From a virus (taxonomy: Duplodnaviria; Heunggongvirae; Uroviricota; Caudoviricetes), in the IMG/VR virus record IMGVR_UViG_2778261572_000007: a DNA stretch of 5,214 nucleotides. The stretch is one strand, 5' to 3'. Under the pieces are notes generated by a model. The model ran no database searches, was not told where the DNA came from, and saw nothing but the letters and a program-made list of their open reading frames with translations. The translations under genes and the position numbers were made by a program. This document shows, piece by piece, positions 1 through 5,214 of this stretch; within the stretch, counting starts at the first letter, position 1, and every line of letters begins with the position of its first letter.

Positions 1-16
1 TGGAGGATGTTTTACG

Positions 17-100
17 GTGACCTGGCCTGAAGCATTCACAACGGTAGGAATTGCACTGGCGGTGGCGCTGGTTGTGTATTCGATTTGCCGCTGGGGATAA
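17..100 (+). CDS. Candidate small hydrophobic peptide (27 aa, VTWPEAFTTVGIALAVALVVYSICRWG), or alternatively the C-terminal tail of a longer gene entering from upstream of the window
   Basis: GGAGG at 2-6, then GTG at 17 (10-nt spacer), open to TAA at 98-100. The product is essentially one transmembrane-like helix. A hairpin terminator follows directly (106-138). The same frame is open back to the window edge, so a longer upstream gene cannot be excluded. A second frame (ATG 7 to TGA 28-30) could equally be the tail of an upstream gene overlapping this start. Confidence 0.3.
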   Translation: MTWPEAFTTVGIALAVALVVYSICRWG

Positions 101-105
101 CAAAC

Positions 106-138
106 AAAAACCCCGGATTGATGGTCCGGGGTTTTGTT
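106..138. terminator. Bidirectional rho-independent terminator
   Basis: 7-bp GC-rich stem CCCCGGA (111-117) / TCCGGGG (125-131) with a 7-nt loop, flanked by AAAAA (106-110) and TTTTGTT (132-138). It therefore gives a U-tract for transcripts from either strand: the plus-strand ORF ending at 100 and the minus-strand antitoxin gene ending at 157. Confidence 0.6.
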
Positions 139-156
139 ATTCATGGTGAATTTTTA

Positions 157-474
157 TTAACAGATTGACTGAATTCCGTTTTTCTCAACCACAGAAAGCA
201 AACGAAGGGCAGGGCCACCAGGGCGCTTTATTCCCCTTTCCCAGTCTGAAATGAGGTTTTTACTGACATTAAGATATCTGGCGAAAACAGGTTGAGACAG
301 ATGCTCGCGCTCGCGAAGTGCCCGGATTCTTTCTGGCGACATTGTTGGCGCTGGTTGCAGACAAAGTTCATCAAACTCTCTCATAGTTTGTTTTGTTACT
401 GCGCCAATATCCTGAAGTGACTCCATCATTTCATGTACGGATGCAAGCGCATCACTGCGGTAATTTTTACTCAT
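157..474 (-). CDS. XRE-family helix-turn-helix antitoxin / transcriptional regulator (105 aa)
   Basis: Complete minus-strand ORF. The C-terminal half (LSQPVFARYLNVSKNLISDWERGIKRPGGPALRLL) looks like an XRE-type HTH. Its start ATG (474-472) overlaps the stop of the upstream toxin-like ORF in an ATGAGTAA junction. A GGAGG Shine-Dalgarno lies 6 nt upstream, inside the toxin 3' end. Family assignment is from recalled motifs, not a search. Confidence 0.8.
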   Translation of the reverse strand: MSKNYRSDALASVHEMMESLQDIGAVTKQTMREFDELCLQPAPTMSPERIRALREREHLSQPVFARYLNVSKNLISDWERGIKRPGGPALRLLSVVEKNGIQSIC

Positions 475-838
475 TGGGTACCTCCGTAAACTGACCCTGC
501 AGGATCAATTGCGCCAGTTGTTCATCAGTAAGATTGAGAACGTGATGCGCAGCTTTTCGAAATGCATTTTCCTCGATGGCTGTAATATTTTCTCTCTCAT
601 TCTTTGCGTACGCATAGATGAAAAAAGCCTTTTCTGCGACGCGGTAAAAAATTATTGTCCTATAACCGCCTGATTTACCGCCACCTCTTCGGGCTAATCG
701 CTGCTTAATGACACCACTACCCAAATCTGCGGATATGAGTCCCTTATCAGCTAGTTCCACGACTTCTCGCAGAGCTTTATCGGAAATCCGATTTTTTCGT
801 GCGAAGCGTTCAAACCAGGCATTTTTGAAAATGCGCAT
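467..838 (-). CDS. RelE/ParE-superfamily-like toxin (123 aa; HigB-like toxin-first arrangement)
   Basis: Minus-strand ORF from ATG 838-836 to TAA 469-467. The segment GGGKSGGYRTIIFYRV...FFIYAYAKNERENI resembles the core of RelE/ParE-fold toxins that pair with HTH antitoxins. The longer 171-aa ORF in the track starts inside the AT-rich intergenic region and has an implausible Cys/Tyr-rich N-terminus, so the ATG at 838 (or 850) is preferred. The start is uncertain by a few codons. Confidence 0.7.
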   Translation of the reverse strand: MRIFKNAWFERFARKNRISDKALREVVELADKGLISADLGSGVIKQRLARRGGGKSGGYRTIIFYRVAEKAFFIYAYAKNERENITAIEENAFRKAAHHVLNLTDEQLAQLILQGQFTEVPNE

Positions 839-1079
839 GTTTGGTTCCATATCGTTGTGTAATACATAGTGTGACACAATTAAATAGGATGGGCAATATA
901 CATACAGGGGGCTTGCTAAGGGATGGCAGCTCAAAAAACACTCTATTTTTAGAGTATACAAATGACAGAAAGAAAAAGTCATTGTTTTTTCTCATGAAAT
1001 ACGCATTTTTTGGGAGTGAAATCGTTATTTGTAGTGGATATATTCCAGCCATGTTTTATCCAATACCAGAGGTTTTACA
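839..1079. promoter_or_regulatory. AT-rich divergent intergenic region with candidate operator inverted repeats; exact promoters not resolved
   Basis: 241 bp between the minus-strand toxin start (838) and the plus-strand ORF at 1080. Inverted repeat TTGTGT (855-860) - N13 - ACACAA (874-879) sits just upstream of the toxin start. A perfect 6-bp inverted repeat ACTCTA (940-945) - TTTT - TAGAGT (950-955) lies mid-region. No clean sigma70 -35/-10 pair could be assigned by eye. Confidence 0.3.
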
Positions 1080-1292
1080 ATGCAGAAGTTGATCGCCGCG
1101 AATTGTAAGTACGCAGTTATTCGTTGTGACGATATGTCGGTTGTAGCTGAAATGGATTGTTTTCCGGATGGGGCCAGGGCTGTATGGCATCGAAAAGGGG
1201 GCATACTTAGGGTAAGAGCTTTGCGGCCTGATGAGCGAATTGTATCGAAAACAGTGCTCAGGGAGATCGTGTATCAGTTTATGCGGACTTGA
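1080..1292 (+). CDS. Hypothetical protein (70 aa)
   Basis: ATG at 1080 preceded by AGAGG (1068-1072) with a 7-nt spacer. It is the first plus-strand ORF after the divergent intergenic region. No motif recognised. Confidence 0.5.
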   Translation: MQKLIAANCKYAVIRCDDMSVVAEMDCFPDGARAVWHRKGGILRVRALRPDERIVSKTVLREIVYQFMRT

Positions 1293-1356
1293 ACAAGTTG
1301 CATGTATCAACAATAATGCCAACCAAAATGGCTGAACACCATTTTACCTGACAAAG

Positions 1357-1650
1357 ATGCGCCAGCAGAGAAAACAGATGGCGCACAAGACCAAATTACA
1401 CAATTCTGATACCGTTCGTGCCAGCAGGCGCGGGCGGCGTTCTCACGCATTCAAATCTGACTGGTTCCAGCATGATTCATGCACTGAAGAACAGGCCGAA
1501 TGGCTGATTCAGAACTACCGCAGACGTGGTTACGAGTTTCAGAAAGACCTCAGCCTCGACTTCCGACACTGGATAATCTCCGTCAGGCTTCCTTACTCTG
1601 AACGCCCACCGCGTCCGTCTCGCACATTCCAGCAACGCATCTGGAGGTAA
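1357..1650 (+). CDS. Hypothetical basic protein (97 aa), translationally coupled to the downstream gene
   Basis: Arg/Lys-rich N-terminus (MRQQRKQMAHKTKL...RRGRRSH). Its TAA (1648-1650) sits 1 nt before the GTG start of the next ORF and immediately follows that gene's GGAGG. The start is uncertain: ATG 1357 has no clear SD, and ATG 1378 is an alternative. Confidence 0.5.
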   Translation: MRQQRKQMAHKTKLHNSDTVRASRRGRRSHAFKSDWFQHDSCTEEQAEWLIQNYRRRGYEFQKDLSLDFRHWIISVRLPYSERPPRPSRTFQQRIWR

Positions 1651-1651
1651 C

Positions 1652-2701
1652 GTGCGGGTATTACTTCGACCTGTTCCGGTACCGGAACTCGGGCTGGTGG
1701 TCCTTAAGCCTGGTCGTGAATCCATGCAGGTATTTCATAACCCTCGAGTGCTGGTGGAGCCGGAACCGAAAAGCATGCGCGGTCTGCCGTCCGGAGTCGT
1801 TCCTGCCATTCGCCAGCCGCTGGCGGAAGACAAAACATTGCTGCCGTTTTTCAGTAACGAACGGGTGATTCGTGCTGCTGGCGGCGCTGGTGCACTTTCT
1901 GACTGGCTGTTGCGTCATGTCAAATCCTGCCAGTGGCCTCATGGCGACTATCACCACAGCGAAACCGTCATACATCGTTACGGTACCGTCGCGATGGTGT
2001 TGTGCTGGCACTGCGACAACCAGCTGCGCGACCAGACCTCCGAGTCACTCGGGCAACTTGCTCATCAAAACCTGTCTGCATGGATGATTGACGTCATTCG
2101 TCACGCAATGAATGGCACACAGGAGCGGGAATTATCTCTGGCTGAATTATCCTGGTGGGCGGTCCGCAATCAGGTGGCGGACGCGCTACCGGAAGCGGTA
2201 TTACGTCGTTCGCTGGGGGTGCGTGCGGAAAAAATCCGCTCAATGTACCGTGAAAGCGACATCGTACCGGGAGAGCAGACCGCCACCAGCATACTGAAAC
2301 AGCGCACAAAAAATCTTGCGCCGCTGCCTCACGCCCACCAGCAACAGAACCCACCACAGGAAAAGACGGTGGTCAGCATTGCCGTTGATCCTGAGTCTCC
2401 GGAATCTTTCATGAAACGACCTAAACGTCGCCGCTGGGTTAACGAGAAATACACACGCTGGGTTAAGACACAGCCGTGTGCGTGTTGTGGTAAGCCAGCC
2501 GACGATCCCCATCACCTGATTGGTCATGGTCAGGGCGGAATGGGGACAAAATCTCACGATATTTTCACGCTACCGCTGTGTCGGGAGCATCACAACGAGC
2601 TTCATGCGGATCCTCTGGCGTTCGAAGAAAAGCATGGTTCTCAGGTTGATTTAATTTTTCGTTTTCTTGATCACGCCTTTGCAACTGGCGTGCTTGGGTA
2701 A
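1652..2701 (+). CDS. Prophage protein of unknown function with a C-terminal Cys/His (HNH-like, probable zinc-binding) cluster; recalled as resembling DUF968 / YdfU-like prophage proteins (349 aa)
   Basis: 1050-nt ORF starting at GTG 1652 with GGAGG at 1643-1647. The C-terminus carries CACCGKPADDPHHLIGHG...LPLCREHHNELH. It sits directly upstream of rusA and Q, a position where lambdoid prophages carry nin-type accessory genes. The family name is from memory and is not verified. Confidence 0.75.
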   Translation: MRVLLRPVPVPELGLVVLKPGRESMQVFHNPRVLVEPEPKSMRGLPSGVVPAIRQPLAEDKTLLPFFSNERVIRAAGGAGALSDWLLRHVKSCQWPHGDYHHSETVIHRYGTVAMVLCWHCDNQLRDQTSESLGQLAHQNLSAWMIDVIRHAMNGTQERELSLAELSWWAVRNQVADALPEAVLRRSLGVRAEKIRSMYRESDIVPGEQTATSILKQRTKNLAPLPHAHQQQNPPQEKTVVSIAVDPESPESFMKRPKRRRWVNEKYTRWVKTQPCACCGKPADDPHHLIGHGQGGMGTKSHDIFTLPLCREHHNELHADPLAFEEKHGSQVDLIFRFLDHAFATGVLG

Positions 2702-2713
2702 AAGAGGTGACTG

Positions 2714-3070
2714 ATGCTCATAGATTTGGTTTTACCTTACCCGCCGACGGTGAACACTTACTGGCGACGCCGTGGCAGCACATATTTTATCTCGGATGAG
2801 GGAAAGCGTTATCGCCGGGCTGTGGCGCTTATTGTTCGCCAGCAGCGGCTGAAATTAAGCCTGTCCGGAAGGCTGGCGATAAAGGTGATTGCAGAGCCAC
2901 CGGATAAGCGTCGTCGCGACCTGGACAATATCCTGAAAGCACCGCTGGATGCGCTGACGCATGCGGGAGTGTTAATGGACGATGAGCAGTTTGATGAAAT
3001 CAATATCGTTCGTGGTCAGCCAGTATCTGGTGGACGTCTGGGGGTGAAGATTTACCCCATAATGCATTAA
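2714..3070 (+). CDS. rusA: Crossover junction endodeoxyribonuclease RusA (Holliday-junction resolvase), 118 aa
   Basis: Size and motifs match RusA: N-terminal LPYPPTVNTYWRRRG and the acidic catalytic region RRRDLDNILKAPLDALTHAGVLMDDEQ. SD AGAGGTG lies upstream of ATG 2714. The position immediately upstream of Q is typical of lambdoid phages that carry rusA instead of ninG/rap. Confidence 0.9.
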   Translation: MLIDLVLPYPPTVNTYWRRRGSTYFISDEGKRYRRAVALIVRQQRLKLSLSGRLAIKVIAEPPDKRRRDLDNILKAPLDALTHAGVLMDDEQFDEINIVRGQPVSGGRLGVKIYPIMH

Positions 3071-3084
3071 GAGCAGGTCAAAAA

Positions 3085-3906
3085 ATGAAACTGGAAGATT
3101 TACCGAAATACTACTCCCCAAAATCACCTTGCCTGACCGATGCATCGGCCTCAACGTCAAAAGATGCGCTGAGTATCACTGATGTGATGGCCGCGCAGGG
3201 CATGACACAGAATCGGGCTGAGATGGGGTTTTCTGCGTTCCTGGGGAAAATGGGCATCAGTATGAATGACAGGGCGCGGGCAACAGAATTACTGGCAGAT
3301 TATGCACTCAGTCGGTGCGATCGTGTGGCGGCGTTGAGAAAACTTCCGGCAGAAATAAAACCGTTAGTGATGCGCATTATGGCTTCGTACGCTTTTGAGG
3401 ATTATGCCCGCAGCGCAGCGAGTAAAAAGCAGTGCCCTTGTTGCTATGGGGAAAAATTTATTGAAAGCGTAGTTTTTACAAACAAGGTCCAGTATCCGGA
3501 TGGTAAGCCGCCGGTATGGGCAAAGTGTACGAAAGGTGTGTATCCGTCTTACTGGGAAGAATGGAAAAAAGTCAGGGAGGTGGTAAAAGTTGCCTGTCCG
3601 GAGTGTGGCGGAAAGGGTGAGGTTTCCACCGCCTGTAAGGATTGCCGTGGGCGTGGTGTCGCCATTCATCGTGAAGAGTCGGTAAAACGTGGTATGCCTG
3701 TTATCAGAGACTGCCGGCGTTGTGGCGGTCGTGGCTATGAAAGACTGCCATCAACGGAGGCATTTAATGCCATATGCAAAGTGACGAGCGCTATCACGCT
3801 TGATACATGGAAAAAATCAGTGAAACGCTTTTACGATACGTTGGTGGTTCGGTTTGACATTGAAGAGGCATGGGCGGAGCGGCAGTTAAAGAGAGTAACG
3901 CGATAG
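3085..3906 (+). CDS. Q: Late-gene antitermination protein Q-like (273 aa) with four CxxCxGxG zinc-finger-type repeats
   Basis: Called mainly on position: directly after rusA and directly before a P_R'-like promoter and tR'-like terminator. Contains CPCCYGEK, CPECGGKG, CKDCRGRG and CRRCGGRG repeats. Assignment to a specific Q family is not verified. Confidence 0.75.
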   Translation: MKLEDLPKYYSPKSPCLTDASASTSKDALSITDVMAAQGMTQNRAEMGFSAFLGKMGISMNDRARATELLADYALSRCDRVAALRKLPAEIKPLVMRIMASYAFEDYARSAASKKQCPCCYGEKFIESVVFTNKVQYPDGKPPVWAKCTKGVYPSYWEEWKKVREVVKVACPECGGKGEVSTACKDCRGRGVAIHREESVKRGMPVIRDCRRCGGRGYERLPSTEAFNAICKVTSAITLDTWKKSVKRFYDTLVVRFDIEEAWAERQLKRVTR

Positions 3907-3911
3907 TGTTG

Positions 3912-3939
3912 TTGATTTTTCCCGAATCTGTGGTAAATT
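3912..3939 (+). promoter_or_regulatory. P_R'-like late promoter (-35 TTGATT, 16-nt spacer, -10 TAAATT with upstream TGg extended -10-like context); a qut-like site is expected to overlap
   Basis: TTGATT at 3912-3917 and TAAATT at 3934-3939, 6-8 nt after the Q stop (3904-3906). Lambda P_R' also uses a TAAATT -10. A small hairpin CGCCC(3941-3945)/GGGCG(3952-3956) plus T-run sits in the predicted initial transcribed region. The predicted start is near 3946. Confidence 0.5.
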
Positions 3940-4115
3940 CGCCCTAACGATGGGCGTTTTATGCCTGACGTTAGAAGAATTTTTACAACTCGCCCTGATG
4001 GGACTTGTGAGACTTCCGGGCAGGAAGCCAGGAGTAGCGATAAGGCGATGGCAAGCCTGCTGCCCCTGTGTAAAAGGCACCTTAATGGTGCCTTTGTCGT
4101 TTTTATCAAAAGATC

Positions 4116-4137
4116 CCCGCCACTGGCGGGTTTTTTT
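4116..4137 (+). terminator. Rho-independent terminator, tR'-like
   Basis: GC stem CCCGCC (4116-4121) / GGCGGG (4125-4130) with a 3-nt loop, followed by seven T (4131-4137). It lies about 190 nt downstream of the predicted P_R' start, matching the lambda P_R'-6S RNA-tR' architecture. Confidence 0.65.
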
Positions 4138-4265
4138 ATGCCTGAAAAGTGGCGCAGGACGTTAAGTGCACTTGCAAAGAGCAGATGGTTGCACAATTAG
4201 CTAAGGCGGCTGATTCTGAATGCATATTATTCCCGCTGGCTGTCGTTACGGATGTGGCAATAAAA

Positions 4266-4342
4266 CCGTCGCTAGCTCATCCGGATAGAGCATCAGCCTT
4301 CGAAGTTGATGGCGCGGGGTTCGAGTCCCCGGTGACGGTCCA
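4266..4342 (+). tRNA. tRNA-Arg, anticodon TCG (UCG), 77 nt with encoded CCA
   Basis: Manual cloverleaf: acceptor CCGTCGC / GTGACGG (7 bp, one G-U); D-arm GCTC-ATCCGGATA-GAGC; anticodon arm TCAGC-CTTCGAA-GTTGA (anticodon positions 34-36 = TCG); variable loop TGGCG; T-arm CGGGG-TTCGAGT-CCCCG; discriminator T then CCA. Confidence 0.75.
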
Positions 4343-4344
4343 TT

Positions 4345-4856
<512 letters not shown>

Positions 4857-4874
4857 ATTTTATAACCCAGAACG

Positions 4875-4898
4875 GGCGTCAGAAATGACGCCTTTTTT
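4875..4898 (+). terminator. Rho-independent terminator (GAAA tetraloop hairpin plus T6)
   Basis: GGCGTCA (4875-4881) - GAAA - TGACGCC (4886-4892), then TTTTTT (4893-4898). It lies 19 nt after the stop of the 4548..4856 ORF and upstream of the Lom-like gene. Confidence 0.7.
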
Positions 4899-4922
4899 AT
4901 TGCAGAAAAGCGAGAGGTAATT

Positions 4923-5214
4923 ATGCGTAAACTTTATGCCGCCATTTTGTCCGCAGCCATTTGTCTGGCCGTATCCGGTGCGCCTGCATGGGCGTCTGAA
5001 CATCAGTCTACGCTGAGCGCGGGGTATCTTCATGCCCGGACGAACGTTCCCGGCAGTGATGATCTGAACGGGATTAACGTGAAATACCGTTATGAGTTTA
5101 CGGACACACTGGGGATGGTGACGTCGTTCAGCTATGCAGGAGACAAGAATCGCCAGATTACCCGTTACAGCGATACCCGCTGGCATGAAGATTCCGTGCG
5201 TAACCGCTGGTTCA
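4923..5214 (+). CDS. Lom/Ail/PagC/OmpX-family outer-membrane protein, 5' part only (continues beyond the window end)
   Basis: ATG 4923 with GAGAGG SD (4912-4917, 5-nt spacer). N-terminal signal peptide [24 protein letters not shown] with an AWA|S cleavage site. The mature N-terminus [10 protein letters not shown]...[28 protein letters not shown] matches the first beta-strands of the Ail/Lom family (the G-x-N-V-K-Y-R-Y-E signature). No stop codon before 5214. It is absent from the ORF track only because it is unterminated. Confidence 0.85.

Follow-up and report, generated by a model that had tools for sequence, protein, structure and literature searches.

In phages 21, SfI, Sf6 and ST64T, tRNA genes for Asn (GUU) and Thr (UGU) lie immediately downstream of the antiterminator gene Q (PMC3636060). 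In Stx phages such as 933W, Min27, Nil2 and 06-3462, a trio of tRNA genes, ileZ-argN-argO, is found upstream of stx. The name argN reportedly originates in the 933W genome paper (Plunkett et al. 1999, J Bacteriol), and a literature search by the names ileZ, argN and argO returned nothing relevant. Here we analysed a stretch of 5,214 nucleotides (hereafter the window), in which a tRNA-Arg gene with a UCG anticodon (positions 4300-4302) lies at 4266-4342 on the plus strand. The gene sits in the same niche as the tRNAs of phages 21, SfI, Sf6 and ST64T, whose isoacceptors are other than Arg, and its partner in the window is likewise a Thr(UGU) gene, although a truncated one.

The nearest phage matches are the tRNA-Arg genes of Min27, Nil2, 06-3462 and many other Stx-converting phages, which are labelled either argN or "tRNA-Arg, codon recognized CGA" and share the scaffold of the window tRNA at 84-89% identity (blastn over positions 8-77; the full-length alignment adds the common C1-G72, U73 and A20). 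Like argN, the window gene has a UCG anticodon, a C1-G72 end pair, U73, A20 and an encoded CCA, and it sits downstream of Q and the terminator tR', at the head of the late region. Unlike the ileZ-argN-argO trio, the window type is Arg(UCG)-Thr(UGU)-Gly(UCC), with neither an upstream CAT tRNA nor a downstream stx, which makes it a sister sub-clade of the same scaffold; no upstream remnant of a CAT (ileZ-like) tRNA was detected even at E<=1. A tRNA-Arg(UCG) downstream of Q is already known from GenBank and RefSeq annotations, being catalogued in Stx and other lambdoid prophages with near-identical copies annotated. As an overall explanation we consider it probable that the gene belongs to the argN family, acts as a codon supplement of the late operon and is, in the window, the survivor of a deletion.

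The tRNA-Arg(UCG) gene and its family

ARAGORN made a single call in the window, a 77-nt tRNA-Arg with anticodon tcg at exactly 4266-4342 on the plus strand, and thereby returned the isotype and anticodon that the initial annotation had read by hand. Rfam model RF00005 gave a full-length match at 4266-4339, scoring 53 bits (E=1.2e-9; gathering score 29), and flagged no non-canonical pairs. The cloverleaf consists of 7/4/5/5-bp stems and a 7-nt anticodon loop, with all 21 pairs of the window copy being standard. The acceptor stem is formed by C1-G72, C2-G71, G3-C70, U4-A69, C5-G68, G6.U67 and C7-G66, the discriminator is U73, and the CCA is encoded at 4340-4342, as initially described. The tertiary nucleotides U8, A14, G18G19, A20, U33, T54-T55-C56 and A58 are all present.

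Comparison with relatives gave the same picture. Across 16 relatives, 99% of the cells in the cloverleaf alignment were paired, versus 29-55% in slid-register controls, and compensatory changes were seen at five pairs, with none of 500 shuffles reaching the observed covariation score. Folding of the single sequence was not distinctive (z=-1.69, with the anticodon arm in another fold), as is common among tRNAs, so the evidence for the gene rests on the covariance model and on the comparison with relatives. The G6.U67-bearing allele of the window is also present, identical, in the intact prophages L019 and L024; the wobble pair is thus no decay of this remnant. Taken together, it is almost certain that 4266-4342 encodes a real tRNA-Arg(UCG) with an intact structure, one of the argN family carried by lambdoid E. 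coli prophages, and the clean cloverleaf and phage-borne character that had been proposed for it both hold, the gene sitting in a prophage downstream of Q and terminators.

The C1-G72 end pair had been singled out as unusual. It does differ from the host tRNA-Arg(ACG), but it is invariant within the family: C1, C2, G3, G71, G72, A20 and the CCA are common to all 16 aligned members, and U73 to 15 of them. A degenerate pattern of the UCG version matched at least 120 IMG/VR contigs, and the 83 copies among the matches listed represent 32 alleles, all of the Stx type, with C1-G72 and U73 in 31 of the 32. As a signature of the family, C1-G72 marks the lineage as a whole and is no peculiarity of the window copy. 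The same pattern occurred in only 3 of about 185,000 species-representative genomes, which fits a gene that travels with prophages and not with core chromosomes.

The sub-clade of the window is rarer, with 11-17 differences from every one of the 32 alleles among the IMG/VR matches listed; the exact window tRNA-Arg was absent from the IMG/VR search. Copies at least 97% identical were found in only 4 of 5426 complete E. coli genomes (strains Z1323CEC0011, Z1323CEC0014, A30 and EC71), all labelled tRNA-Arg in RefSeq, where the labelled copies are 97-99% identical, and the draft assemblies GCA_044691025.1 and GCA_024243155.1 also carry a near-identical gene. In these four strains and the two draft assemblies, the tRNA is 97.4-100% identical to that of the window and is accompanied by the same Q, the same terminators and the same Arg-Thr order. 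These prophages keep an intact tRNA-Thr, tRNA-Gly and lysis genes, where the window has a deletion junction between tRNA-Thr and the tail-tip gene J instead. The intact prophages L019 and L024, both from draft assemblies, are 100% identical to the window over 3907-4410 (504 nt), including the tRNA allele. Separately, locus L020 (4682-4759) carries a 78-nt allele of the same tRNA-Arg whose T-stem has one additional C in its 3' strand (GTCCCCCGG), which could be a homopolymer sequencing error or a damaged copy.

The Arg tRNA genes known from E. coli K-12 have the anticodons ACG, CCG, UCU and CCU only. The host tRNA-Arg(ACG), whose A34 is deaminated to inosine (ICG), is encoded by argQ, argV, argY and argZ, and was present in all 5426 genomes with a median of four copies. 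Like the window tRNA, it is 77 nt long, has A20, C35, G36, A37 and A38 and reads CGA. The two anticodon loops (CUUCGAA in the window, CUACGAA in the host) differ solely at position 34. In the remainder they diverge: the host tRNA has G1-C72, A73 and A34 against C1-G72, U73 and U34 in the window, the anticodon stems (UCAGC/GUUGA versus CUCGG/CCGAG) are entirely different, the acceptor end of the window tRNA (U73, C2-G71, G3-C70) departs from host tRNA-Arg, and only 47 of 77 positions (61%) are identical.

These comparisons also bear on whether the gene derives from a host tRNA gene, a piece of which was duplicated when the prophage integrated, since many prophages integrate into tRNA genes and Stx phages use tRNA-Arg sites (PMC7946995). 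An attachment-site remnant would hardly be full length and only 61% identical to host tRNA-Arg(ACG), and the same tRNA type occurs in phage genome records. In intact relatives, moreover, the gene lies mid-prophage, between Q and the lysis genes and about 17 kb from the integrase, a position that refutes this origin and leaves it with practically no probability.

The late-control block and the deletion junction

A lambdoid nin/late-control block makes up the left part of the window and holds a RelE/HTH pair, a DUF968 (YdfU) gene, rusA and Q. The RelE-family toxin (PF06296) and HTH antitoxin genes, at 157-474 and 467-838 on the minus strand, lie upstream of the late-control genes; the same pair is present in L019, L025 and Br_190, with hokD/rem in its place in other relatives. 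Q is an open reading frame of 273 aa at 3085-3906 on the plus strand, with homologues annotated as "antitermination protein (Q)" and with the PF03589 Antiterm domain on an identical protein. The protein is complete, and intact prophages encode an identical one.

A candidate late promoter, pR', was picked out by eye at 3912-3939 on the plus strand (TTGATT, a 16-nt spacer and TGgTAAATT, an extended -10). It matches 8 of 12 consensus positions plus the TG, the scanner cut-off being 9 of 12, and its location just after Q and about 130-190 nt before the terminators is one that we take to resemble lambda pR'/6S RNA. From this motif and its position we infer a putative late promoter at 3912-3939. No sigma-70 promoter near tRNA-Arg passed the promoter scan, and a dedicated promoter directly upstream of the gene was considered and rejected, as a -10 that looks good by eye (TATTAT, 4226-4231) has no matching -35.

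Tandem intrinsic terminators resembling tR' follow at 4073-4140 on the plus strand, with hairpins at 4073-4095 and 4116-4130 and a T tract each, and a third terminator-like hairpin between Q and tRNA-Arg lies at 3940-3956. The terminator scan found 4 sites versus 0.8 expected in shuffles, and the phage Nil2 record carries the annotation "tR' late terminator" at the equivalent place. The succession of Q, promoter and terminators presumably corresponds to the pR'/tR' arrangement of lambda-like phages, and the tRNA-Arg begins ~125 nt past the last of the tandem terminators, downstream of Q. The region 4077-4136 (plus strand) also gave a sub-threshold Rfam match to isrK, an Hfq-binding sRNA known as a prophage late-region RNA in Salmonella (19.8 bits versus a gathering score of 50, E=0.058); this match over the tandem terminators probably reflects just the terminator hairpins.

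Downstream of tRNA-Arg, after a 2-nt spacer, lies a tRNA-Thr(UGU) pseudogene (4345-4410, plus strand), of which only the 5' ~66 nt remain, the 3' acceptor strand being lost. Rfam scores the element (4345-4417) at 48 bits, above threshold, with mismatched acceptor pairs, and ARAGORN makes no call; homology to intact Thr genes stops at 4410/4411 and there is no cloverleaf fold. A three-way comparison places the deletion junction at 4409-4411, where a 3-nt TAA microhomology connects tRNA-Thr to J. Namely, with a slash marking the junction, the Thr gene of L019 reads ...CCGGTAA/CCGGCA, the J gene of PhiR70_1 reads ...CAGATTAA/GGGGAAAC, and the window reads ...CCGGTAA/GGGGAAAC. From 4409 on, the sequence agrees at 99.4% identity with the 3' end of J plus lom in PhiR70_1. 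This part comprises a 3' fragment of J (4411-4856, plus strand; lacking a start codon, with about 148 codons and its stop at 4854-4856), a terminator-like hairpin between J and lom (4874-4903, plus strand) and the 5' part of lom (4923-5214, plus strand), an Ail/Lom outer-membrane protein gene whose translation matches annotated Lom and which runs off the window.

The order in intact relatives is Q, Arg(UCG), Thr(UGU), Gly(UCC), holin and lysozyme, with terminase through J and lom coming later. The location of the gene between Q/tR' and the late genes is seen on its upstream side in the window and on its downstream side in the intact prophages L001, L019 and L024. The window lacks tRNA-Gly together with every gene for lysis, head and tail that would precede the final ~148 codons of J, and no virulence or toxin gene lies 3' of tRNA-Arg within it. 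From this alignment we read the window as a prophage scar left by a deletion with 3-nt microhomology. The Thr/J junction was not found in the 5426 complete E. coli genomes, the GTDB species representatives or 26 fetched loci; a real deletion is more likely than an assembly chimera because of the microhomology and because an analogous holin-J fusion exists in E. coli N2250. There (L007 4798-6960), a truncated holin is joined directly to an N-terminally truncated J, 3' of Ile-Lys-Thr-Gly tRNAs. The N2250 scar is an independent one, and deletions from the late-operon leader to J seem to recur.

The tRNA slot itself is mosaic in the lambdoid manner. An identical 273-aa Q in L019-L026 is followed by variable modules, which are either Arg-Thr-Gly tRNAs, a DNA methyltransferase and then tRNA-Gly only, or a ParE-HTH pair without tRNA.

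Predicted charging, decoding and codon supply

The identity set of bacterial ArgRS consists of A20 (the major determinant, in the D loop), C35 and G/U36 (PMC9976931), and it is complete in the window tRNA, which has A20, C35 and G36 with the anticodon U34-C35-G36. Minor determinants are the discriminator A/G73 and the acceptor pairs G2-C71 and C3-G70 (PMC9976931); at these positions the window tRNA has U73, C2-G71 and G3-C70, U73 being among the bacterial Arg discriminators in Table 1 of PMC9976931. The acceptor end raises the question of a wrong isotype, in which C1-G72 and U73 would lead to charging by ProRS, GlyRS or CysRS and to miscoding of CGA/CGG, given that C1-G72 acts strongly as a determinant for E. 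coli ProRS, and U73 as one for GlyRS and CysRS (PMC9976931). However, ProRS also requires G35, G36 and A73, GlyRS requires G1-C72, C35 and C36, and CysRS requires a GCA anticodon, none of which sets is found in the window tRNA. With the ArgRS set complete and no rival synthetase set in place, and with a miscoding tRNA unlikely to stay conserved in at least 120 viral contigs, we rejected mis-charging as very improbable.

Position and sequence features suggest how the tRNA would work in intact relatives, where it appears as the first gene after Q, the late promoter and tR' and heads the closely packed Arg-Thr-Gly cluster before the lysis genes. From this position, it would be transcribed with the late operon, from the late promoter, once Q permits read-through of tR'. 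Going by general tRNA biology, RNase P would cleave the precursor at C1, and trimming would stop at the encoded CCA. C1-G72 is also the end pair of E. coli tRNA-Pro and is hence compatible with both processing and elongation. The tRNA would then be charged by the host ArgRS through A20, C35 and G36, and it is predicted to decode CGA through Watson-Crick pairing and, through wobble, CGG as well. In the host, by contrast, CGA is read only via the inosine-bearing tRNA-Arg(ICG) and CGG via a separate tRNA-Arg(CCG). This corresponds to the usual bacterial CGN scheme as laid out in PMC3711424, with tRNA-Arg(ICG) for CGU, CGC and CGA and a second tRNA-Arg(CCG) for CGG. The benefit would lie in modestly better translation of prophage genes, in which CGG, and to a slight extent CGA, is more frequent than in host genes.

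The initial annotation had supposed that the tRNA adds decoding capacity for CGA/CGG-type codons in late or virulence genes, and codon usage backs this weakly. In the late genes of the intact Z1323 prophage (L009), compared with 42 flanking host genes (L013), CGG was enriched about 2.3-fold (14.0 versus 6.2 per 1000, OR 2.26, p=3e-8), but the excess of CGA was not significant (5.7 versus 4.0 per 1000, OR 1.45, p=0.07), and AGA and AGG, codons outside the reach of this tRNA, were enriched more than either. In the window's own genes the odds ratios were 2.6 for CGA and 2.3 for CGG. AGA, AGG and ATA were all more enriched in the prophage (OR 2-7) with no tRNA for them in the Arg-Thr-Gly cluster, which indicates that the codon matching is loose. 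The codon data are hence compatible with supplementation and are not specific evidence for it, leaving it weakly supported; we put the codon-supplement mechanism of tRNA-Arg(UCG) at even chances or slightly better. As side observations on codon usage, AGA and AGG were enriched 3-7-fold and ATA 2-3-fold relative to host genes in the Z1323 prophage and the window genes, and among the codons of the other cluster tRNAs, ACA (Thr UGU) was not significantly enriched in late genes (OR 1.24) and GGA (Gly UCC) was enriched (OR 1.72).

In the window, a microhomology-mediated deletion would have spared the tRNA-Arg while removing its presumed client genes and altering its 3' processing context. The downstream tRNA-Thr, truncated here, would normally supply the RNase P cut that frees the 3' end of tRNA-Arg. 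With the client late genes deleted and this site lost, the window copy may be poorly matured or functionless. Taken to its end, this would make the window copy a silent relic, intact merely through the recency of the deletion, unexpressed or unmatured and making no contribution. The prophage is defective, the junction at 4409-4411 removing tRNA-Gly and all lysis and morphogenesis genes; three terminators stand upstream of the gene with no promoter found by the scan; the truncated Thr deprives the window of the normal downstream RNase P site; and a recent deletion is suggested by the 504 nt in which the window is 100% identical to intact relatives. Still, the window has a complete Q that matches that of intact prophages exactly, the tRNA-Arg gene bears no disabling change, and exonucleases and RNase E are known to process the 3' ends of tRNAs even where RNase P makes no cut downstream. 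We regard silence of the window copy as a minority possibility, and one that is compatible with the explanation at the level of the family, in which the gene would serve codon supply in intact prophages.

Anticodon switching and a possible anti-defence role

The scaffold defined by C1-G72, U73 and A20 carries UCG, UCU or UUU anticodons in different prophages. TCG copies are those of the window, Z1323, EC71 and the Stx phages. TCT copies occur in 2015C-4136CT1, O8:H8, Br_190 and Stx2d_112808 (L005 1501-1577, L006 1501-1577, L008 6932-7008 and L018 394-470), and TTT copies in 689R5, 606R7, PPompW_EH2201, 95-3322 and N2250 (L002 5180-5256, L014 401-477, L016 401-476, L010 601-677 and L007 4273-4349). 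When the anticodon loop is masked, the Stx2d_112808 copy (TCT) has 2 differences from the TCG copy of Min27 and 12 from the nearest other TCT copy. On the scaffold tree, which is built on only about 68 sites with recombination possible, it nests inside the TCG Stx clade, and the TTT copies fall at two places. The closeness of the Stx2d_112808 copy to Min27 and the two placements of the TTT copies imply that the anticodon of the scaffold switched more than once, as far as a tree of this size can tell.

Odd anticodon loops are found among the UUU ("Lys") versions. In L002, L014 and L016, the universal U33 is replaced by C33, T38 is found in L010 601-677, L007 4273-4349 is likewise among them, and L011 601-678 has an 8-nt anticodon loop that ARAGORN reads as "tttt". 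Several UUU versions were left without annotation by PGAP or the phage authors, and A20 and U73 are kept. Gene decay or escape from nucleases may account for these versions.

According to the anti-defence idea, phage tRNAs take the place of host tRNAs that defence nucleases have cut (PMC10264068), and the tRNA-Arg might mainly stand in for host tRNA-Arg lost to a toxin or defence nuclease that cleaves tRNAs, such as a colicin D-like enzyme or a Toprim/OLD-type nuclease yet to be described. Its U34 might cover several CGN codons alone, and the Thr(UGU) gene and Lys(UUU) scaffold versions would serve likewise against P2-OLD, PARIS and PrrC. Precedents exist for the partners: phage tRNA-Thr(UGU), including that of the lambdoid phage 21, rescues cells from P2-OLD (PMC12445682), and the PARIS nuclease AriB cleaves Lys(UUU), Thr(UGU) and Asn(GUU) tRNAs, with phage versions rescuing (PMC12409363), its target anticodons exactly matching those in Q-downstream tRNA clusters. 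For Arg, colicin D targets tRNA-Arg (PMC12409363, PMC10264068). Additional support comes from the repeated swapping of UCG, UCU and UUU on the scaffold, from an acceptor end and anticodon stem unlike those of host tRNA-Arg (47/77 identical) and from the weakness of the codon enrichment. Against this, colicin D is the only enzyme known to attack tRNA-Arg and none is known in a lambdoid infection setting; the P2-OLD paper makes no mention of tRNA-Arg (PMC12445682), and among Q-downstream tRNAs the anti-P2-OLD function has been demonstrated only for Thr(UGU), not for Arg (PMC12445682). Moreover, the anticodon loop equals that of host tRNA-Arg(ACG) save for position 34, so that it holds no obvious loop escape mutation. 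On this evidence we consider replacement of a cleaved host tRNA-Arg unlikely as the main role.

The P2-OLD cleavage signature has been reported as a paired CNG motif (PMC12445682). By eye, the prophage tRNA-Thr(UGU) (L019 4760-4835; window 4345-4410) has C28-U29-G30 paired with C40-A41-G42, plus A37; it keeps the paired motif, so resistance to P2-OLD is not predicted on this basis. In the corresponding region, the window tRNA-Arg has CAG on the 5' strand and UUG on the 3' strand, and the Stx-type argN has CAG/CUG.

A broader and more speculative reading, which we hold to be improbable, joins the switching scaffold with its neighbours. The scaffold would form the second slot of the lambdoid Q-downstream cluster, with exchangeable anticodons, and together with Thr UGU, Gly UCC and Ile/Met CAU it would make up a kit of replacement tRNAs that sustains late translation when defence or competitor nucleases cut the tRNAs of the host, instead of a codon supplement. 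The acceptor end and anticodon stem, both unlike the host's, would then protect the Arg member from a putative Arg-tRNA nuclease.

As a discovery, the locus carries little weight, a Q-downstream tRNA-Arg(UCG) being a catalogued feature. For annotation, it can be recorded that the gene is real, that its tRNA-Thr neighbour is a pseudogene even with an Rfam score above threshold, and that a deletion has scarred the prophage at this locus. More widely, an active question for Thr(UGU) and Lys(UUU) is whether prophage tRNAs serve codon supply or act against tRNA-cleaving immunity, and a scaffold that swaps its anticodon would be a reasonable test case for it.
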